Shown here one piece after another: positions 2,477 to 21,021 of a stretch of 54,769 nucleotides of DNA. The DNA comes from a virus (lineage: Duplodnaviria > Caudoviricetes): IMG/VR virus record IMGVR_UViG_3300005532_000251, positions 1 through 54,769 of that record. One strand, given 5' to 3'. The translations under genes and the position numbers were made by a program. Within the stretch, counting starts at the first letter, position 1, and each line of letters begins with the position of its first letter. The notes beneath the pieces are model-generated. The model had not been told where the DNA came from. It worked only from the letters and a program-made list of their open reading frames with translations, and searched no databases.

Positions 2477-2545
2477 CTGGCAAGGTGAAAGCTGCCAGGC
2501 GACGATCCGGCGCATGGGGATGCTCGGATCGAGGACATTATAGCA
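2477..2545 (-). promoter_or_regulatory. Antisense extended -10 promoter over two hairpins
   Basis: Perfect TGCTATAAT on the minus strand (2537-2545) firing across the CGATCCG/CGGATCG and CGCCTGGCA/TGCCAGGCG stems. Confidence 0.45.
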
Positions 2546-2567
2546 AAGCATGGGAAAGGTTAGCACA

Positions 2568-2885
2568 ATGACGGATCTCGTTCCCTACACCTTTGGGGAA
2601 AGCATGCTCCCCGCATCAGCGGGTGGCGCATTGCCGCCGGGGCAACTTCAAGGCGTTCACTTTACCGTGACAGCTCAAATTTCCTGGATTTTGGAGAAAC
2701 TTGAGCAGTGGTTTCGTGACCGCAATGAAGTCATCCTGGTCGCTCATGGATCAACACGGCAGGGCTTAGGCTTTGTCATCCTTGAATGGGAGGAGTGCGA
2801 GGTTGACCCGCTCTTCCTGGCTATCTTAGAGCATGAGGACATCGTGGCAGATTACGCCGTCTACACCCGCACGGCGGAGGTGTAG
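2568..2885 (+). CDS. Hypothetical protein, first gene of the putative transfer module
   Basis: AAAGG upstream of ATG 2568; tightly coupled to the next two genes. Confidence 0.6.
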   Translation: MTDLVPYTFGESMLPASAGGALPPGQLQGVHFTVTAQISWILEKLEQWFRDRNEVILVAHGSTRQGLGFVILEWEECEVDPLFLAILEHEDIVADYAVYTRTAEV

Positions 2886-2887
2886 CC

Positions 2888-3445
2888 ATGCGAGGAGCGA
2901 CAACGAACACGGCGAAAAGCGGCGGCGAGCCTCTGGCTCCGACGTTTCTCTATGGCTTACTCGAAGTTGGCACGGGCCTATTCTGCTCATTTCAGCAGCT
3001 TATGACGACGCATGACAGCATCGTCGGCATTCTGCAAGGTGGAATCATTGTCCCCTCGCACATGAGCGCGCAGGCTCTGCTCGCGTTCATTCAGAGCAAT
3101 ATGGACAAAGATAATCGTATTGCCTGGACGGTAGCAATCGTCACACAGGTTCTGTATTGGGGCGCGATGCTGCACGCCGGGCCATTCCAGCGAAGGCTCC
3201 TACACCGGCTGACGATCTGGGGATTCTTCGGCCTGGAGATTGTCACCGACCTCTGGTATAGCATCGCAACGAACACGACGCTCGGCGGCGCGTTCGTATG
3301 GATCTTTAATTTTGGTAACGGCGGCTGGCTGGTCAGCCTCTGCTATATCGCAGCGATGAGTGCCGGATCGATCTTCCTGGTATGGCGCGGCCTCTCGCGG
3401 CTCGGCAAGTGTGCAAGTGTGGTCTTTGCGAGCGAAAACCACTAA
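2888..3445 (+). CDS. Multi-pass membrane protein (Spd-like candidate)
   Basis: GGAGG RBS; 3-4 hydrophobic segments; lies directly upstream of the ATPase. Confidence 0.6.
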   Translation: MRGATTNTAKSGGEPLAPTFLYGLLEVGTGLFCSFQQLMTTHDSIVGILQGGIIVPSHMSAQALLAFIQSNMDKDNRIAWTVAIVTQVLYWGAMLHAGPFQRRLLHRLTIWGFFGLEIVTDLWYSIATNTTLGGAFVWIFNFGNGGWLVSLCYIAAMSAGSIFLVWRGLSRLGKCASVVFASENH

Positions 3446-3458
3446 GGAGGGATACGAG

Positions 3459-4970
3459 ATGGGCGATGAGCACGAAGAGGACAATGATGGCTTTGTCCCT
3501 CTCTCCACGGGAACCGAGGCGGGCATCGCAGCGTTCTTCGTGGGCGCGCCGTTTCTGGGCATGGCTTCGGCCATGCTCGGACTCGGCGAGGCTGGTATCC
3601 TGGCCGGCGTTATCGGCGGCGGGGCGCTCGCAATCGCCGCAAAGGTCGCGGTTGATGGCAATGCAGGAAAGAATCCTCACGTTACCCTGCCTGGGCTTAC
3701 ACAGCTACGCTCAGCCAACTGGCGCGCGCTGTTCGTGCCTACCGATATCGATGACCAGGTGCAGACCTTGACAACGAACGAAGCGTCGAGTCTTTCTCAC
3801 AATGAAAGCGAAGAATACATGGATCTTGGCAGCACCTTGCGTCCGCATGCCAACGCGATCTTCTCTGGCCGCAAGGCGCTCTTTGGTGCTTCGGATGCCG
3901 GCAAGTCGAATGCTGTCGCCGTGATCTGTGAGGAGATCGCGAAGTTCGGCGCGCCGCTCTTCCTGCTCGATACCGAGGATGAATACCGCGCGCTCTGCGA
4001 TAAGCGGTACTTTCCGCGCCCGGTGTGGGTGGAGAGTGCTCGCATCGCGCCATCGCAGGCATACGACTTTGCGCAGTGGGCGATGAATAAGCGCGCCCAG
4101 GTCGTCGTTAACCTGCAAAGCTACGAGGATGACGAGGCGGCCTGGCTGATGATCGATCTTATCAAGGGTATCCGAGCATGGGAGGAATCGCATGATCGCA
4201 TCCCATGCGAGGTCATCTTAGACGAGGCGACGGTGTGGCTGCCGCAGAATGTCGCTGAGAGCACCCTTGCACGCATCATGGTCGCTGATCCAGAGGCAGG
4301 CGAGGAAGGCAAGCAGATCTCATTGCTGGCGCTCTTACAGCGGGCCTTCTTTTCAGTCGTCGTGCGCAGAGGACGCAAGCGCGGCATGGGCTTTACCTTC
4401 GCTGCGCAGCGCATCGCTGAGATCGACAAGCGCGCGCTGCAAGCATCCTGGCTGATCCTGATGAAGCAGGCACAGCCGGCGGATTTCCGCATCTACAAGG
4501 AATTTGGCATCGAGGGAGACGCAGCGCTCTCTCTTGCCAAAGGCGAGGCGTTCGTCCAGGCCCCAGGCAAAACAATGGAACGACATCAATTCCGGCTGCG
4601 TCGCTCCCCGCATGGCGCCCACGCGCCGGGATTGGCGGAGCTGCGCAAGGCCGTTTCCGCGAGCGTTTCCCAACCTGGAAACAGCGGAAACGACGGAAAC
4701 ACCAATGGAAACAGCGCGGAAACGCCTCTACAGGCCAATGCAGCCAAGATCATTACGGATGTGTTTCCTGTTTCCCAGGATGGAAACGACGACCATTCGA
4801 GCGCAGGCAATGGCCTCCCTGTTTCCCCGGAAACGCGGAAACACATCGCCGCGATGCGCGAGGCAGGATACCCAGATCGGGACATTGCGCAGCTCGTTGG
4901 CTTATCCGGGCGCAAGTATGCGCTCTATCGGCAAGTCGTGGCATCGCTTGGCTCTACCCGCGAAGCATAG
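3459..4970 (+). CDS. Membrane-anchored FtsK/HerA-superfamily (DUF87-like) ATPase with C-terminal HTH
   Basis: AAGGAGG RBS; N-terminal TM pair; Walker A GASDAGKS; Walker B VILDEA; RRGRKRG arginine-finger region followed by AAQR; C-terminal REAGYPDRDIAQLVGLS HTH-like segment. Confidence 0.8.
   Translation: MGDEHEEDNDGFVPLSTGTEAGIAAFFVGAPFLGMASAMLGLGEAGILAGVIGGGALAIAAKVAVDGNAGKNPHVTLPGLTQLRSANWRALFVPTDIDDQVQTLTTNEASSLSHNESEEYMDLGSTLRPHANAIFSGRKALFGASDAGKSNAVAVICEEIAKFGAPLFLLDTEDEYRALCDKRYFPRPVWVESARIAPSQAYDFAQWAMNKRAQVVVNLQSYEDDEAAWLMIDLIKGIRAWEESHDRIPCEVILDEATVWLPQNVAESTLARIMVADPEAGEEGKQISLLALLQRAFFSVVVRRGRKRGMGFTFAAQRIAEIDKRALQASWLILMKQAQPADFRIYKEFGIEGDAALSLAKGEAFVQAPGKTMERHQFRLRRSPHGAHAPGLAELRKAVSASVSQPGNSGNDGNTNGNSAETPLQANAAKIITDVFPVSQDGNDDHSSAGNGLPVSPETRKHIAAMREAGYPDRDIAQLVGLSGRKYALYRQVVASLGSTREA
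4653..4842. repeat. Cluster of 13 GGAAAC/GTTTCC hexamers (clt-like)
   Basis: GTTTCC at 4653, 4665, 4763, 4770, 4821; GGAAAC at 4677, 4686, 4695, 4707, 4718, 4782, 4829, 4837; they fall in different reading frames. Confidence 0.8.
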
Positions 4971-4971
4971 G

Positions 4972-5069
4972 GACAAGTACCGAACAAGCGCGGTACTTGT
5001 CTGTAGTAGAACACGCAATACCAGCAAAATAACACAGATAGACAAAGCAGTACCGCGCAAGTTCGGTAC
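4972..5069. promoter_or_regulatory. Paired palindromic operators / parC-like centromere
   Basis: GACAAGTACCG-N8-CGGTACTTGTC (4972-5001) and GTACCG-N8-CGGTAC (5050-5069), near-inverted copies of each other, upstream of parM. Confidence 0.65.
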
Positions 5070-5093
5070 AAGTTCAGAGCAAGGAGGAACACA

Positions 5094-6182
5094 ATGAACA
5101 TGAGATGGTATGGCTATGGGCATGACTTTGGCAACTCGGAGATCGGCGGCGTCACCGTCTGCGATGGCAAGATGCTCTCCGCATCTATTCCGACTGCCAT
5201 CGCAAAGATCGATACGGCAGCCATGCGCAATCTCGGCATCGACATCGCGGCAAGAGATGCACACATCATAGGGTTCGCCGATGAGGAGAGCACCTGGGCC
5301 GTCGGCGATCTCGCTTTACAACAGACGAGCGCCGCCTGGCATGGACGTGGCGATATCCAGAGATATGCGAGCAAGCAGAGCCTGCGCGGCTTGCTCACGG
5401 TGGCGTCCTCGCTCATCCCTGATCGCGAGTTCGGTCTCTACGTCGTCACCGGGCTGCCAGCGGAGATCTACATGAAAAACGATGCGTTGCGCAAAGACAT
5501 CAAGGCAGCCCTGGAAGGTCGGCATGTCTTCACGACTGACGGCGGCTCTACATGGCGCATTGCCCACGTTGAGGTTGCAAAAGTTGTCATGGAGGGCGCC
5601 GGGGCACTCATCGCCTACGGTAGCCAGCAAGAGCAGAATAGGTACGCTGCTGTCATCGATGTTGGAGGCCGCACAACGGATCTCTATGTGGCCCGTGCAG
5701 GCGTGCCGCAGGCTGAGTTCTGCCGTGGCAAACCGCTGGGAGTTGCCACGGCTGCTGAGGCGATCAAGGCTGCCTTCGAGGAGAAGCACGAGTATCCGCT
5801 GACGGACCTGGAGGCCCGCGACATTCTTCATGCCTATGTCAGTCATGGGAGCAAGAGCTACCCGGAGATTACCGCGTATGGCAAGGAAATCAATCCGCTT
5901 GCCATCGAAAAGGTTGTAAAGCAAGCCGTTACCGATGTTGGCGCCGAGATCGTCTCGTTCACAGCCAGCTCCTGGCGGCAAAGCGAGCGCGGCGCTGTCG
6001 CGGTGAGCTTTAAGCCAGTGCTCTGCATCGGCGGCGGGACCTTCTACTTCTATTCGTCGCTCAAAGAGCGCATACCGCATATCTCGCGTGTCAGTAATCC
6101 GGTGCATGCCAATGCTATCGGGTATTGCACACTCGCAGCGCAGCTCTATAACCGTCGTCCAACGCAGAGCGCAGCATCGTAA
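5094..6182 (+). CDS. parM: ParM/StbA-family actin-like partition ATPase
   Basis: Actin phosphate-1 GHDFGNSEI, VVTGLP, MEGAGA, phosphate-2 IDVGGRTTD, IGGG, ANAIGY; AAGGAGG RBS. Confidence 0.88.
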   Translation: MNMRWYGYGHDFGNSEIGGVTVCDGKMLSASIPTAIAKIDTAAMRNLGIDIAARDAHIIGFADEESTWAVGDLALQQTSAAWHGRGDIQRYASKQSLRGLLTVASSLIPDREFGLYVVTGLPAEIYMKNDALRKDIKAALEGRHVFTTDGGSTWRIAHVEVAKVVMEGAGALIAYGSQQEQNRYAAVIDVGGRTTDLYVARAGVPQAEFCRGKPLGVATAAEAIKAAFEEKHEYPLTDLEARDILHAYVSHGSKSYPEITAYGKEINPLAIEKVVKQAVTDVGAEIVSFTASSWRQSERGAVAVSFKPVLCIGGGTFYFYSSLKERIPHISRVSNPVHANAIGYCTLAAQLYNRRPTQSAAS

Positions 6183-6184
6183 TC

Positions 6185-6490
6185 ATGGAGATCGTCATGC
6201 CGAAAGATCGTGAAAAGTTTCAGTACTATGAGGTCGGAATCCTGCGCGATTCCGACCTGCACCGAGATATCCTTGCCGATGCTGAGGCATCGCAGATGCC
6301 GGGGCATATTCCGTTGCTGCTCGCCGCTCGGCTCTCTGAGTACTATGCATTGCGTCGAGCTGGCGCGATCCCTGCTCTGTCAGCCACGGCCTCAAAACAA
6401 GGAGAGCATATCGAAGAGAGCGATGTCGTCACAGAGGCACCGCCAGGCGTGGCTGCGCAGTCAGCCCTCGGCTATGAGTGGCCGGATTAA
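6185..6490 (+). CDS. Putative ParR-like adaptor
   Basis: Small ORF directly after parM, with an ordered N-terminus and acidic flexible tail. Assigned mainly by position. Confidence 0.55.
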   Translation: MEIVMPKDREKFQYYEVGILRDSDLHRDILADAEASQMPGHIPLLLAARLSEYYALRRAGAIPALSATASKQGEHIEESDVVTEAPPGVAAQSALGYEWPD

Positions 6491-6509
6491 TCGAAGATTG
6501 GAGGGAATT

Positions 6510-11173: not shown

Positions 11174-11196
11174 GCCTGTAATCTTGTCCTGATAAG

Positions 11197-11259
11197 TCCA
11201 GAATGAAACGCGCAAATTCCAGAATGAAACGCGCAAATTCCAGAATGAAACGCGCAAAT
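11197..11259 (+). repeat. Three perfect 21-bp tandem repeats (iterons)
   Basis: TCCAGAATGAAACGCGCAAAT x3, then an AT-rich palindrome ATTTAAC-GAA-GTTAAAT at 11284-11300. Confidence 0.9.
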
Positions 11260-11315
11260 TGAGCGAGAAAGGGGGGGTAATAAATTTAACGAAGTTAAAT
11301 GTGCACTCGCGCCGC

Positions 11316-11469: not shown

Positions 11470-12054
11470 ATGGTTGACAATTCTACTCCTCATTCTGAGG
11501 ATACCACAATCGCGCAACTGACGGCCAGCCTGGAATATGCCAATAAGCTTTTGAGCAGTATTGAGGGCATGCAGAACACGCTGGCGAATGCCAAGCGGCG
11601 CCATGATGGCGGCTTAGAGGCCGATCTGACGAAGGCGCTAGAGGCTGCGCAGAAATCGCTCTCTGATATAGAGCGTCAGGTAAGCACCTTTCCAGGCCGG
11701 CGCGGCGCGCTCAATGTTACCGATGTGTCCGGGTGTCTTATAAGCAAGCAGACATGCAACAAGATGCGCACACTATGCATCATGCCCCGTCTCTGCTTGA
11801 TCTGTTCCCCTCATCTGCAATCATCTGCCTGCACTTCATCGGCTATACTGATCTGTGGCGCTGCCCTTTATGGGCAGGGCTGGCGCGGCGATGACCGCCC
11901 GTTCTCGTCGCCGCGTCCCAGTAGTCGCAGCGCCGCGCGGCATATGGACCGTCACGCGCAGCGATGTGGCCGCCCAGGCAGCGATGCGCGCTCCGTTTCT
12001 GTGTTTCCAGAGTGCGCGCATGGGGATCGCTGCCTCTCTTTGATCGTGTTGTGA
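11470..12054 (+). CDS. Hypothetical protein; coiled-coil N-terminus, C-terminal half probably spurious read-through
   Basis: Strong RBS; the first ~75 aa are coiled-coil-like and the remainder runs over regulatory-looking DNA. Confidence 0.4.
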   Translation: MVDNSTPHSEDTTIAQLTASLEYANKLLSSIEGMQNTLANAKRRHDGGLEADLTKALEAAQKSLSDIERQVSTFPGRRGALNVTDVSGCLISKQTCNKMRTLCIMPRLCLICSPHLQSSACTSSAILICGAALYGQGWRGDDRPFSSPRPSSRSAARHMDRHAQRCGRPGSDARSVSVFPECAHGDRCLSLIVL

Positions 12055-16091: not shown

Positions 16092-17165
16092 ATGACAGTC
16101 TATGGCGTCACCGTCGGCTCAAAAGGGCCGCAACTCAACCCGCAAGTCATCACAGCGATGCGGGATCTTGGTCTTACCTCGCTGCGCTTTAATCTGTCGG
16201 CCACAGTGCTGACCGATGGCCGTGGCAGCTATAACTGGGCTGTCGCTGATAACTTTGTGCAGCAGTGTAACGAAGCCGGCATCGAAGCCTACTATGTGCT
16301 CAAGGATTTGCCGGCGGCCTGGCTTGACAGTCAAGGATTACCGACGCCTGCCGGGATGCTCGCGTATGCTTCGGCGGTAGCGAGCCGCTATAACGGCAAG
16401 ACTGGACATGGCAAGATCGGCGTCCTTGAGGTCGGCAATGAGGCGTACAGCCTCAGCTCGACGTTTTACGGCGCGCAGCTCGCCGCTGCGATGAACGCAG
16501 TGTACCAGCCTATCAAGAATATCAATGCTGATCTCCTGGTTGTCCCTGGCGCGCTCTTGCAGCGCAATACGCAGACCATTGAGAATGGCACGGCGACGCT
16601 TTTACAGCAGGCTGCGCACAGCATGGATGCGCTGAATTGCCATACCTACTTCGGTATCCCTGGAAACGGCCATATCGATCCCTCAGATGGCAGTCTCCCA
16701 AATATTCCCAGCTTCCCACAGTACATCGAAGCGATGCAGGGTGTGCTGGCCCAGCACACCATAAGCCTGCCGATCTGGGTGACAGAGTTTGGCTGGGCCA
16801 CCACGGCGAACTTTGGCCGCGCATTGCGCACCGTCGTCACTCCTGAACTGCAATGGCAATATGAGAAGTATTGCTACGACCAGGCGGCAAAGCTCGGAGT
16901 TCAACGCATGTACGTCTTTACCCTCGGCTTTGCGAACCCGCCTGACGGCACATCGCTGGTCCAGGCAGGCGGCGCGAAGACGGTGGCCTACAACGGTCTC
17001 AAGGCATACATTGCCGGCCAGCCGAGTAGCGACCCACCGCCGAATAATGGGAACGACGGCGGCAATGGTGGGAACAGTGGAGGCGGATCAGGGCCAACGA
17101 GCGCGCAGATCGCGCAGGCGGTATCGCTGCTCGATGAGGCGAAGCAGTTGCTGAGTGGTTCCTAG
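16092..17165 (+). CDS. Clan GH-A glycoside hydrolase (GH5/GH39-like)
   Basis: Acid/base EVGNE, DALNCHTY, nucleophile PIWVTEFGW; Gly/Asn linker and short C-terminal helix. Confidence 0.75.
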   Translation: MTVYGVTVGSKGPQLNPQVITAMRDLGLTSLRFNLSATVLTDGRGSYNWAVADNFVQQCNEAGIEAYYVLKDLPAAWLDSQGLPTPAGMLAYASAVASRYNGKTGHGKIGVLEVGNEAYSLSSTFYGAQLAAAMNAVYQPIKNINADLLVVPGALLQRNTQTIENGTATLLQQAAHSMDALNCHTYFGIPGNGHIDPSDGSLPNIPSFPQYIEAMQGVLAQHTISLPIWVTEFGWATTANFGRALRTVVTPELQWQYEKYCYDQAAKLGVQRMYVFTLGFANPPDGTSLVQAGGAKTVAYNGLKAYIAGQPSSDPPPNNGNDGGNGGNSGGGSGPTSAQIAQAVSLLDEAKQLLSGS

Positions 17166-18121
17166 ATCCCGAACATTTCTTCGAGTTTGTCGCCGTAGGG
17201 GTTCTCAGCGCTGTGGAGCTGCTTCATATACATGGAGGTGGTTTTGAGGTCATTGTGACCGAGGCGTTCACCGATTTCAGAGAGTGAGGCGCCGGCCTTC
17301 TCCATATTGATCGCAAACGAGTGGCGCAGAACATGACCGCGCGGATCGTCCAGATACCTGTCGCAGATATCGGAGATGGACTGTGATGAGAGCGGCCCGC
17401 CATAGTTGTTGTGCGAAAGCGAAATCCAAATCGGCGAATCATTCTCGATGGAAAGCAAGGCTTCACCATAGACGGCGTGAAGGTATTCCATGAGTGCAGT
17501 TGCAGTCTTCGGCTTCAAGACATCGTGCATCACTTTGCCGCCCTTACAGCGGGGCCATGTAACCAGGATGCGCCGCGCTGAAATTGAGAGATGTCCATAG
17601 CGCATCGCCGCCAGCTCTCCGATGCGTCGCCCGGTCGTAAATCCAACGGAAAGCAGCGCGAAGTCACGCATGCCAGCAAGAGTTCGGCGATCAATCAAGG
17701 CAAGTCGCGCTGCAATCTCCTGGCTTGTCATGGGGAGGGCCGCATGCACGCTCACGCGTGGGCGACGCTCTGCAAGGTCAATAGGGTTCACGGCGACGAT
17801 CCTCCCGGTTCTGGCATAGCGATAGAAGCTACTGAGTATCGCCAGGCGCTGATTATGCGTTGCTGGCGCAATAGCGCGGCCATCGCGGCCTATCGATGCC
17901 CATGTCTCAGCAAATCGCGCTACCAGTGTAGCATCACTGTCGAGATCGCGTCCAGCTCGTTGCAACGCGGCGCGAAACTCTCGAATGGTCCATTCATAGG
18001 CTGTCTTCGTCTTCTCACTGCCAGAACGTCGCGTTTTCGTGGCAAGCCAGGTGGTAATGCACTCTTCAAGCGCACGAAGCCGGTCTGGAACAGCCTGGAG
18101 CATCCCGGAATACTCATCCAT
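17162..18121 (-). CDS. Tyrosine recombinase (XerC/D-like)
   Basis: Catalytic set TTGRRIGE (R), KGGK (K), HVLRH, LGH, TTSMY; N-terminal core-binding domain and no arm-binding domain. Confidence 0.93.
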   Translation of the reverse strand: MDEYSGMLQAVPDRLRALEECITTWLATKTRRSGSEKTKTAYEWTIREFRAALQRAGRDLDSDATLVARFAETWASIGRDGRAIAPATHNQRLAILSSFYRYARTGRIVAVNPIDLAERRPRVSVHAALPMTSQEIAARLALIDRRTLAGMRDFALLSVGFTTGRRIGELAAMRYGHLSISARRILVTWPRCKGGKVMHDVLKPKTATALMEYLHAVYGEALLSIENDSPIWISLSHNNYGGPLSSQSISDICDRYLDDPRGHVLRHSFAINMEKAGASLSEIGERLGHNDLKTTSMYMKQLHSAENPYGDKLEEMFGI

Positions 18122-19908: not shown

Positions 19909-19977
19909 TCGCCGACTCCCTTGTAATCTTTGTGGTTATATTATCACATCCTTTTTAACAGCACCGGAGGACGCCGC

Positions 19978-21021
19978 ATGCCAGGCCCGCTCATCGTCCC
20001 CGTCACCACTATTTCAAAGATCAGGCCGCACAGTAACGCCGATTCCCTCGAAATCGCTGAGGTCTTGGGATGGCAGTGTGTCGTGCAGAAGGATCGCTAT
20101 AACGTCGGCGACAAAGTGGTCTATTTCCCTCCTGATACGATGCTCCCCAAAGACAAGAGCGACTCCTGGGGTATCACGCAGTATCTCGATAAGCAGCGTA
20201 TCAAAGCGACGCGACTGCGCGGCGAACCATCGTTCGGCCTGGTCATGCCGTGCGAGGATGAATCATGGCAGATCGGTGAGAACGTCGCCGAGTATTACGG
20301 CGCGACGAAGTGGGAGCCACCGACACGCGAGGCCGCCTGGGCGAAGGCGATGCGAGGGCAGGGAAAGTTCGTCGCCAACCCTGATGCACTCCCTGGTAAT
20401 CCGCTCTTCCCTGAGTACACGCACATTCAGAACCTGCGCCACTTCCCTGATCTCTTCGGCGCCGACGAGCTGGTCGTCGTCACTGAGAAGCTGCACGGCA
20501 CCAATTCGCGGATCGGCATCATCAACGGCGAATGGATGGCAGGATCGCACCGGGTGCGCCGTGGCGAAGGTGACGCGCTCTACTGGTCGCCACGAAAACA
20601 GCGAGGTGTCGAGGCGCTGCTTACAGCGCTAGCTTCGTATCACCGCCAGGTCGTGCTCTACGGCGAAATTCTGGGCAGTGATGTGCAGAGCTTAGATTAC
20701 GGCTATGCGGGCCACGCTGGCTACAGAGCATTCGATCTCATGATCGATGGCCGCTATGTCGAGTTCGATGTCTTCCGCATGCTCTGTGTGCGCTACGATG
20801 TTGCGATGGTGCCGATGCTCTCCTATGGCTATCCCTTCAACCTCGATGAGATCCGCATGGAGGCCAGCGGCAAAACGGCACTCGGCTCGAATCATCTTCG
20901 CGAAGGCGTCGTGGTGAAGCCGCTCATTGAGCGCACGGATCCACGCATTGGGCGCGCCATTGCCAAGTACGTCAGCGATGATTTTCTGCTCGCGAAGCAC
21001 AGCGATTTTGCGGAGGTGTGA
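19978..21021 (+). CDS. ATP-dependent RNA ligase, DRB0094/Rnl2-like family
   Basis: N-terminal H.NAD.LE..W..VV OB-like module; nucleotidyltransferase motifs TEKLHGTN, YGEI, AFDL, REGVVVKP, AKYVS. Confidence 0.9.
   Translation: MPGPLIVPVTTISKIRPHSNADSLEIAEVLGWQCVVQKDRYNVGDKVVYFPPDTMLPKDKSDSWGITQYLDKQRIKATRLRGEPSFGLVMPCEDESWQIGENVAEYYGATKWEPPTREAAWAKAMRGQGKFVANPDALPGNPLFPEYTHIQNLRHFPDLFGADELVVVTEKLHGTNSRIGIINGEWMAGSHRVRRGEGDALYWSPRKQRGVEALLTALASYHRQVVLYGEILGSDVQSLDYGYAGHAGYRAFDLMIDGRYVEFDVFRMLCVRYDVAMVPMLSYGYPFNLDEIRMEASGKTALGSNHLREGVVVKPLIERTDPRIGRAIAKYVSDDFLLAKHSDFAEV

Follow-up and report, generated by a model that had tools for sequence, protein, structure and literature searches.

Streptomyces plasmids transfer DNA with a single motor protein, TraB, which binds 8-bp clt repeats via its C-terminal helix-turn-helix (HTH) and pumps double-stranded DNA (dsDNA) (PMC4447253, PMC5365140). 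Two membrane helices are present in the TraA protein of plasmid pWTY27, where a clt with 7-bp repeats, direct and inverted, extends over the end of the traA gene on its 3′ side (PMC3583192). HerA-like ATPases also act in DNA transfer, i.e., TdtA of Thermus (PMC5365140) and CedB of the Sulfolobales (PMC9905601). The general idea of phage-borne spread proteins has precedent as well, in actinophage SpdB2 homologues that were proposed to spread phage DNA. The Streptomyces plasmid pZL12 is reportedly also a phage. Here we examine IMG/VR record IMGVR_UViG_3300005532_000251, a stretch of 54,769 bp from a tailed phage (hereafter the window, meaning this whole stretch; provirus label, CheckV completeness 66%), at the left end of which two small genes (orfA and orfB) and an ATPase gene form a module that is followed by a parM-like gene (2568-6490, all genes on the + strand).

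We propose, at a probability of roughly 45%, that this module is a sequence-directed dsDNA translocation system, a HerA-clade analogue of TraB/clt/Spd that would serve virion-independent spread. The proposal builds on the observed architecture of the ATPase, its HerA-clade fold, an array of short repeats in its gene that resampling marks as selected at the DNA level, the pairing of that array with a single HTH type, and module-bearing contexts in which no virion genes were detected. The clt-like array is new here, and is a likeness to TraB absent from the original prediction, which had described a TraB/Spd-like module in a phage-plasmid of a filamentous host.

Results

A HerA-clade core in an FtsK/TraB-like domain frame

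The module and the parts of its ATPase are arranged as follows (AF2, AlphaFold2 model; pLDDT, predicted local distance difference test):

2568-2885, + strand: orfA, 105 aa from ATG 2568, small soluble protein
2888-3445, + strand: orfB, 185 aa, hydrophobic, about 4 candidate membrane segments
3459-4970, + strand: ATPase, 503 aa, membrane-anchored, with HerA-clade core and C-terminal HTH
3507-3665, + strand: N-terminal hairpin of two hydrophobic helices, aa 17-39 and 43-69 (hydropathy, AF2 helices)
3804-4649, + strand: ATPase core, aa 116-397 (AF2 pLDDT mostly > 90)
4653-4842, 8 sites on + and 5 on -: GGAAAC array, 13 sites in the linker-coding part of the ATPase gene, consensus bGGAAACRS
4827-4946, + strand: C-terminal three-helix HTH, aa 457-496 (AF2 helices, pLDDT 50-73)

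Hydropathy, structure prediction and scans of open reading frames (ORFs) with Pfam and PHROG confirm what had been described from the sequence, namely a small protein, a hydrophobic protein, an anchored ATPase with a C-terminal HTH, and parM, all within a tailed phage. The module start at 2568 also agrees with the N-termini of orfA homologues, which begin at this ATG (the ORF itself opens at ATG 2550); the ATPase ORF opens at GTG 3360, and 25 homologues align from ATG 3459.

A common plan runs through the 26 aligned ATPase members: (i) an acidic N-terminus, two hydrophobic helices (the N-terminus being hydrophobic in 26/26) and a variable linker; (ii) a core with an invariant Walker A GxxGxGK[ST], Walker B hhhhDEA and an RRGRKRG block; and (iii) a second variable linker, then one to three small DNA-binding domains. 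The window ATPase has Walker A GASDAGKS and Walker B hhhhDEA, invariant in the alignment. Pfam assigns it to the DUF87/HerA central domain (E 1.6e-6, 28.8 bits against a cut-off of 23.2), and at E ≤ 0.01 DUF87 is matched by 26/26 members and FtsK_SpoIIIE (PF01580) by 0/26. None of the 26 matches T4SS-DNA_transf or TrwB_AAD_bind, and a single member matches P-loop_TraG (E 0.003).

Structure gives the same picture. In a phmmer search of PDB sequences the window ATPase matches 4d2i (E 5.1e-5), and when its AF2 model (mean pLDDT 73.9) was compared with PDB chains by VIA-align, Z scores were 24.0 for that Sulfolobus HerA (4d2i; root-mean-square deviation 2.9, 244 residues), 23.4 for a defence HerA, 21.4 for the DndH C-domain, 20.0 for VirB4, 19.6 for the STIV2 packaging ATPase B204, 17.7 for TrwB, 16.6 for TcpA, 15.9 for EccC (EccC/EssC ATPase domains, 15-16) and 15.4 for FtsK. 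The fold alignments begin at about residue 114-117; before residue 116 the model has two long helices and a disordered linker, and the HAS barrel is absent. By Pfam membership and fold ranking, which stand in here for a tree of TraB, FtsK, HerA and VirD4, the ATPase falls outside the TraB and FtsK families; it is a HerA-clade core in an FtsK/TraB-like domain frame. The TraB-like architecture that had been predicted (membrane anchor, pump ATPase, C-terminal HTH, small or hydrophobic proteins ahead) is supported, whereas membership in TraB/FtsK is supported neither by the family counts nor by the Z scores of HerA versus FtsK.

The tails of relatives are winged helices or FtsK_gamma-like, with FtsK_gamma matched in 3/26 members, HTH_Crp_2 in 3/26 and MarR-type families in a few; the tail of locus L010 matches FtsK_gamma at E 9.8e-7 (28.8 bits, cut-off 30.6). 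The family comprises 872 representatives at E ≤ 1e-3 and 104 at ≤ 1e-30, and the only names seen were 'hypothetical' and 'HerA central domain'. Five long forms of 719-766 aa (P0012, P0017, P0020, P0021, P0024) have an extra N-terminal domain of ~90 aa, whose histidines and paired CxxC motifs give it, on inspection by eye, an HNH- or zinc-ribbon-like look but which has no match to Pfam HNH families, and end in two or three copies of a winged HTH (wHTH).

A repeat array selected at the DNA level within the ATPase gene

Counting both strands, GGAAAC occurs 29 times in the window, and 13 of these copies fall inside the 190 bp of the array. No other 6-, 7- or 8-mer is as strongly clustered anywhere in the window, and the runner-up among hexamers reaches 7. 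The other 16 copies compare with ~27 expected per hexamer on both strands of 54.8 kb. The array stretch codes for the disordered linker between the ATPase core and the HTH. Its + strand sites lie in frames 0, 0, 0, 0, 0, 2, 2 and 1, so that all three frames are used, and the motif is read accordingly as Gly-Asn, Val-Ser, Pro-Glu-Thr or Arg-Lys-His. Synonymous resampling that kept the protein and applied the codon usage of the core gave a mean of 1.0 site, and synonymous shuffling within the region a mean of 4.8; 0/5000 replicates reached 13 in either test. Because resampling and shuffling never attain the observed number, the motif is, on this statistical evidence, selected as DNA. Two other origins were rejected: the frame, strand and resampling tests rule out a by-product of a Gly/Asn-rich linker, and a pac site is contradicted by the distance of 9 kb from terS and by the presence of the array in L050 and L054, whose available stretches show no terminase.

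The array recurs with its HTH. A tail motif, GL[SRG]GRKY, is common to the window and two of its distant relatives, L050 (a cellular integrative element with an ATPase of 737 aa) and L054 (a metagenome contig with ParM after the ATPase). At the same place, L050 holds 16 of its 25 GGAAAC copies (17 kb) and L054 8 of its 9 (3.1 kb). The array is thus present in 3/3 GLxGRKY-tail loci that keep the linker-HTH layout, and their neighbour genes differ. Across the 37 sites, flanking bases that were not part of the search are conserved (not A before the motif in 35/37, R after it in 36/37, S next in 34/37). The orientation order of the sites is colinear between the window and L050, with L054 showing the same array and order, and the spacing consists of direct repeats 9-12 bp apart plus inverted pairs. 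By analogy with clt, the array is a candidate loading or recognition site; as such it would clearly exemplify a cis-acting element that moulds the very linker encoded over it, at the level of amino-acid sequence.

Other tails come with other motifs. L041, whose tail is different, has GGGAAC x12 at the array place (resampling P 0/5000 and 0.0002). ATTCACG in L046 and CCGAAA in L067, the tail of which only loosely resembles the GLxGRKY type, reach significance when tested on core codon usage and miss it in the within-region shuffle (P 0.054 and 0.13, respectively). L002 and L078 have a common wHTH type and CAGAC-type repeats just past the stop codon. Family-wide, we located the most clustered hexamer of each of 53 dereplicated loci (one of them, L036, from unpublished genome G078 and with its cluster outside the zone). 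This top cluster lies within -450..+300 of the ATPase stop in 15/53 loci versus 6.5 expected (P 7e-4), and within -450..+1300 in 31/53 versus 11.8 expected; for clusters with at least 8 copies, the wider zone holds 17/25 versus 4.5 expected. Many of the downstream clusters sit, in both orientations, in the gene of the membrane protein encoded after the ATPase, over its coiled-coil part, as with GTGTCCA/TGGACAC, read as Val-Ser-Thr and Leu-Asp-Thr.

As a separate observation, dense 6-7-bp arrays mark the downstream membrane or coiled-coil genes of L040, L043, L044, L045, L056, L065, L066 and L094, with CTTGCA/TGCAAG x18 in L040 and GTGTCCA/TGGACAC in L045, L056 and L066, in both orientations and within coding DNA.

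The module in phages and cellular elements

The comparison took in 16 loci: besides the window itself, there were 2 viral contigs and 13 stretches from genomes of the Ktedonobacteria class. Ahead of the ATPase, 5/16 have an orfA homologue and 11/16 a hydrophobic orfB-like ORF (three BLAST clusters); a membrane protein of 307-491 aa follows the ATPase in 10/16. Viral contig L002 (a 46-kb record, 96% complete) encodes orfA, orfB and ATPase at 59%, 73% and 44% identity, and in viral contig L003 the module adjoins TerS, TerL and portal. An IMG/VR search with the single ATPase protein gave 0 matches, and one with the alignment gave 8 loci, 2 of them close; a scan of genome contigs gave at least 3 loci. 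Among INPHARED phages, tblastn with the ATPase found no match at E 1e-3, and PLSDB plasmids yielded only 16 haloarchaeal DUF87 genes at 21-25% identity, one neighbourhood of which (H3) was uninformative.

In the cellular loci the module is accompanied by recombination genes (tyrosine or serine recombinases, excisionase), replication genes (DnaB, a DnaD-like initiator, a PolA-primase fusion, an archaeo-eukaryotic primase [AEP]), methylases and DUF5131. A PHROGs scan of 78 proteins from these loci detected no terminase, portal or capsid, bar weak rows: the coiled-coil part of the membrane protein downstream of the ATPase in L045 matched minor head protein (1.2e-11) and tape measure (2.9e-5), and the ATPases themselves gave a weak terminase-family row. 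Two integrases about 11 kb apart flank the module in L046, and in L051 a stretch of ~7.6 kb bounded by cellular genes is made up of membrane proteins, the ATPase, a small ORF and a serine recombinase and nothing else. L047 (genome G062) and L051 (G083), from two species, are 94.7% identical over 3589 nt covering just the module (orfB-like gene, ATPase, downstream membrane gene); their serine recombinases and flanks differ. Conversely, a related phage in genome G156 has a TerL 73% identical to that of the window and most structural genes in common, and is without orfA, orfB, ATPase and ParM. Because the G156 phage does without the module and L047 and L051 share it in different flanks, the module is accessory to the phage and exchangeable between elements; it is also present in loci whose scanned stretches showed no virion genes.

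Two loci have features of their own. The G156 phage (G156:C1 ~5,045,900-5,126,300, L111-L116; 40.2 kb) occurs as two head-to-tail copies in a 5.3-Mb contig, 99.98% identical over 40,219 bp and with a 454-aa opposite-strand ORF at the left edge of each unit, which is either a tandem prophage or an assembled concatemer. L048 (G116:C101) encodes a short family member of 380 aa adjoining an HNH gene, a glucosaminidase-like gene, ParA, a VirD4-type coupling protein, a relaxase fragment and a Tn3 transposase.

The candidate partner proteins orfA and orfB

Hydropathy reveals no hydrophobic segment in orfA, for which 23 homologues were found, including a Ktedonobacter racemifer hypothetical protein (52%). 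Its AF2 model (pLDDT 83.9) has a ferredoxin-like b-a-b-b-a-b fold, whose best structural Z of 8.0 is uninformative (generic ferredoxin-like), and Foldseek returned no match at E ≤ 0.001. A profile search of PDB sequences brought up designed SAKe repeat proteins, which we regard as spurious, and pLS20 Aux2, which is not significant (E 0.093). Complex prediction of orfA with ATPase residues 112-503 gave a score of 0.00.

The earlier description of orfB as a multi-pass membrane protein stands in part: it has four moderately hydrophobic 19-aa segments, making the description plausible, and a single one of them is strong (above Kyte-Doolittle 1.5, the other three below) by hydropathy, the measure applied here. 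No Pfam, PHROG or ESM Atlas assignment was obtained for orfB; the ESM Atlas held nothing at ≥ 0.9, and YWFCY at 0.86 is a lead only. For neither protein did these searches show homology to Spd proteins, so that the Spd likeness originally proposed for the two partners is not borne out.

The ParM locus and the phage genome

Directly after the ATPase gene, the window continues as follows:

4977-5069, no strand: parC-like inverted repeats with GTACCG-containing arms, 28-nt arms 82% complementary, in a 123-bp spacer
5094-6182, + strand: ParM-like actin-type partition ATPase (ALP_N 4.3e-17, MreB-like_C 2.6e-8, phrog_691 2.8e-24)
6185-6490, + strand: ParR-like small gene, 101 aa, assigned by position only

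The ParM is 45% identical (E 4e-98) to the gene after the ATPase in L054. The ParR-like gene has no Pfam or PHROG family match; its counterpart behind the L054 ParM shows 44% identity to it over 48 aa (E 7e-8), and GTAC-rich repeats in L054 occupy the same position as the parC-like repeats of the window. Repeats, ParM and small gene, as a set conserved with L054, would fit a ParMRC locus and a plasmid prophage. For the phage-plasmid status originally suggested, ParM and the parC-like repeats argue in favor and the provirus label against.

Tailed-phage genes in the window include TerS, TerL (phrog_979 2.9e-139), portal, head protease, tape measure and an amidase endolysin, along with a tyrosine recombinase and an RNA ligase. 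Pfam scans took in 65 window ORFs (14 + 51), among which no relaxase or type IV secretion system (T4SS) family was found, in line with the original reading. The stretch 2500-6500 of the window was found in contigs of 13 sequencing runs from 7 studies (mine and soil metagenomes); these matches are to contigs only, with no RNA data set listed. Contigs in two runs reach 2.8 kb beyond the first base of the window. No well-supported joint skipping the module was present in the run contigs, the joints seen having sides of 20-32 letters and 90% likeness.

Elsewhere in the window, three tandem 21-bp repeats (25-nt unit, 96-100% identical) at 11194-11260 precede ORF 11470-12054 in a gap and could be an operator or iterons. 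The tyrosine recombinase (17162-18121, - strand), between terminase and RNA ligase/portal and absent from the G156 phage, could be an integrase or a plasmid dimer resolvase. The RNA ligase (19930-21021; PF09414, phrog_968 4.8e-47) lies between terminase and portal and is 66% conserved in the G156 phage. The first gene (1-1941, 646 aa, no family match), at the same position in the G156 phage at 33-36%, is a candidate replication or early protein.

Host and range

All named ATPase homologues are from Ktedonobacteraceae (P0005, P0022, P0039). At E ≤ 1e-10 the family is found in 21/169 genomes of the class to which the Ktedonobacteraceae genome G001 belongs (a count including unpublished G078), and in an even sample of the phylum 7/401 genomes have it, all 7 among those 21. 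Ktedonobacteria are described as actinomycete-like, mycelial and spore-forming (PMC5371077, PMC5064121, PMC6497799). The phage host, judged by these homologies, is thus probably a mycelial soil bacterium, Ktedonobacteria-like, in agreement with the filamentous host guessed beforehand, given that the named homologues come from Ktedonobacteraceae, including Ktedonobacter racemifer, in a mycelial class (PMC5371077, PMC5064121).

Discussion

A model for virion-independent spread

In the model that we favor, orfA, orfB and the ATPase would form an accessory module moving the element's own dsDNA across a membrane or septum. The N-terminal hairpin would seat the ATPase in the membrane, and the C-terminal HTH would bind the bGGAAACRS array within its own gene. 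A HerA-type ring would then form on the DNA and pump, assisted in the membrane by orfB and perhaps also by orfA. Where the host is mycelial, the phage genome would in this manner enter neighboring compartments or hyphae without virions. We infer that the HTH binds the array, that a ring forms and pumps DNA, and which way and for what biological role it does so; the lateral-spread reading is favored because hairpin, ring core, tail, array, partners and mycelial-host elements all match the logic of TraB/clt/Spd. By extension, and at somewhat worse than even odds, Ktedonobacteria may own a one-motor dsDNA conjugation or spread system, HerA-clade and with clt-like arrays, that has been captured by tailed phages. 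The array lends itself to direct testing, the targets being a defined site of 190 bp, the 60-aa tail and the Walker A lysine K149.

Several observations weigh against this model. The core is HerA-clade, and many members of this clade are repair or defence ATPases. The window tail matches HTH_38 (E 0.002) and HTH_23 (E 0.008) under the Pfam cut-offs in both cases, and the membrane segments of orfB are weak by hydropathy. The window is without the 307-491-aa membrane protein that follows the ATPase elsewhere, and because this protein is missing the phage copy is a reduced module. The absence of the module from the G156 phage makes it dispensable and is silent on its role. HTH type and motif are cleanly paired in the GLxGRKY group (3/3) but not in the wHTH group, and in 22/53 loci the top hexamer cluster lies outside -450..+1300. 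A repeat array beside the gene of a DNA-binding protein would be equally iteron- or centromere-like. Finally, the host assignment derives from homologues, and mycelial growth from literature on cultured members of the class.

Alternative functions

One alternative is vertical segregation, in which the array is a membrane-tethering or loading site and a SpoIIIE/FtsK-like ATPase clears or pumps the prophage plasmid through closing septa or into spores together with ParMRC, with no passage to cells free of the element. That the ATPase gene is directly followed by parC-like repeats, ParM and a ParR-like gene in both the window and L054, that relatives have FtsK_gamma-like tails, and that the array is local rather than genome-wide, with outside copies no more numerous than expected, all speak for such a role. 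We nonetheless consider it unlikely: the integrated loci L046, L047 and L051 carry the module without any need for plasmid segregation, L050 has the same array and tail and no ParM, and the adjoining ParMRC would render a second segregation device redundant.

The HerA-clade core also invites a reading as cargo for defence or superinfection exclusion, with a membrane HerA-type ATPase blocking or expelling incoming foreign DNA. Complexes of Sir2-HerA and DUF4297-HerA are among its top Foldseek matches, its distribution is patchy, with small islands, prophages and adjoining methylases, and in L042 the gene lies ~4 kb from BrxL. PADLOC adds weak matches to HerA and mad8 models, although these cover the P-loop region only and do not exceed 33 bits (best HerA model, E 6.1e-9). 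By Pfam, no Sir2, DUF4297, NurA or other effector partner is encoded among the 65 window ORFs, and a dense array of self sites co-occurring with its own HTH type would be unexpected for a sensor of foreign DNA; defence is thus a distinctly improbable role.

Were the array instead a set of iterons, the ATPase would be a membrane-tethered, origin-binding initiator or helicase. A DNA-binding hexameric ATPase whose gene holds direct repeats 9-12 bp apart and inverted pairs would have that appearance; Pfam and PHROG scans recognised no replication initiator in the window, and the minimal element L051 shows no other replication gene. Complete replication sets nonetheless coexist separately with the module in L050 (DnaD-like initiator, DnaB and clamp), L049 (PolA-primase) and L052 (AEP primase), the HTH_36/DnaD-like gene of L002 holds a repeat cluster of its own (CGAATC, 9/11 copies), and we know of no replicative initiator from the FtsK/HerA superfamily, all of which makes replication very unlikely. 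Least probable is an EccC/EssC- or VirB4-like motor for protein export or another membrane process, which would accord with the Z scores of those proteins and with the two N-terminal membrane helices of EccC, but in which the predicted sequence-specific DNA-binding tail and the DNA-level array would have no role, and for which no WXG-like or T4SS partner was recognised in the window ORFs scanned.

Comparison with known systems

Type IV coupling proteins (TrwB/VirD4, TcpA) resemble the ATPase in having two N-terminal membrane helices and a P-loop core (Z 17.7 and 16.6), and differ in their coupling-protein domains, in that neither T4SS-DNA_transf nor TrwB_AAD_bind is matched here, and in the relaxase or T4SS genes that the window lacks. 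HerA-NurA and the defence HerA proteins are the best sequence and fold match of the core; here, a membrane hairpin and disordered linker replace the HAS barrel, a C-terminal HTH is present, and no NurA, Sir2 or DUF4297 partner accompanies the ATPase. With FtsK/KOPS (FtsK orienting polar sequences) and SpoIIIE/SRS (SpoIIIE recognition sequences), the module would share the plan of a membrane-anchored dsDNA pump with a gamma-type C-terminal domain for short words, FtsK_gamma being matched by 3/26 relatives. KOPS and SRS are spread and polarised over the chromosome, whereas the sites here form one local array, the ATPase is of another clade, and the anchor is a two-helix hairpin.

TdtA of Thermus transjugation and CedB/CedA of Sulfolobales import rely on HerA/VirB4-like ATPases that move DNA between cells (PMC5365140, PMC9905601). 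TdtA is encoded on an element like an integrative and conjugative element (PMC5365140), and Ced has a polytopic membrane partner and small membrane proteins (PMC9905601). TdtA is without a DNA-binding domain and works with a NurA-like nuclease, and Ced imports DNA via a pilus-type apparatus; the likeness of these ATPases to the one described here is at the superfamily level. Actinophage SpdB2 and pZL12 differ in being actinomycete FtsK-type systems. Our literature search, which covered listings, abstracts and passages, found no comparable case in Chloroflexota and no description of the ATPase family or of conjugation-like systems in Ktedonobacteria.

The most extensive likeness is to TraB/TraA-clt-Spd of Streptomyces (pSVH1, pWTY27, pJV1, pIJ101) and of actinomycete integrative and conjugative elements. 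Both have (i) an FtsK/HerA-superfamily ATPase of the ring type, anchored in the membrane and ending in an HTH (predicted here), (ii) repeats of 7-9 bp, direct and inverted, that form an array at the 3′ end of the ATPase gene or extend across that end, (iii) small and hydrophobic operon partners with no relaxase or T4SS, and (iv) a setting in small integrase-plus-replication elements of a mycelial host. The differences are that the core here is HerA-clade and not FtsK_SpoIIIE, the array lies inside coding DNA and in both orientations, the probable host phylum is Chloroflexota and not Actinomycetota, and the carrier is a tailed phage. If our model is correct, naked phage DNA could travel through a mycelium and give a tailed phage a second, virion-independent route, which would change how infection, lysogeny and host range should be measured in filamentous bacteria. 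Single-motor dsDNA transfer, so far tied to actinomycete TraB, would have arisen a second time, in a different ATPase clade and a distant phylum with the same mycelial body plan.

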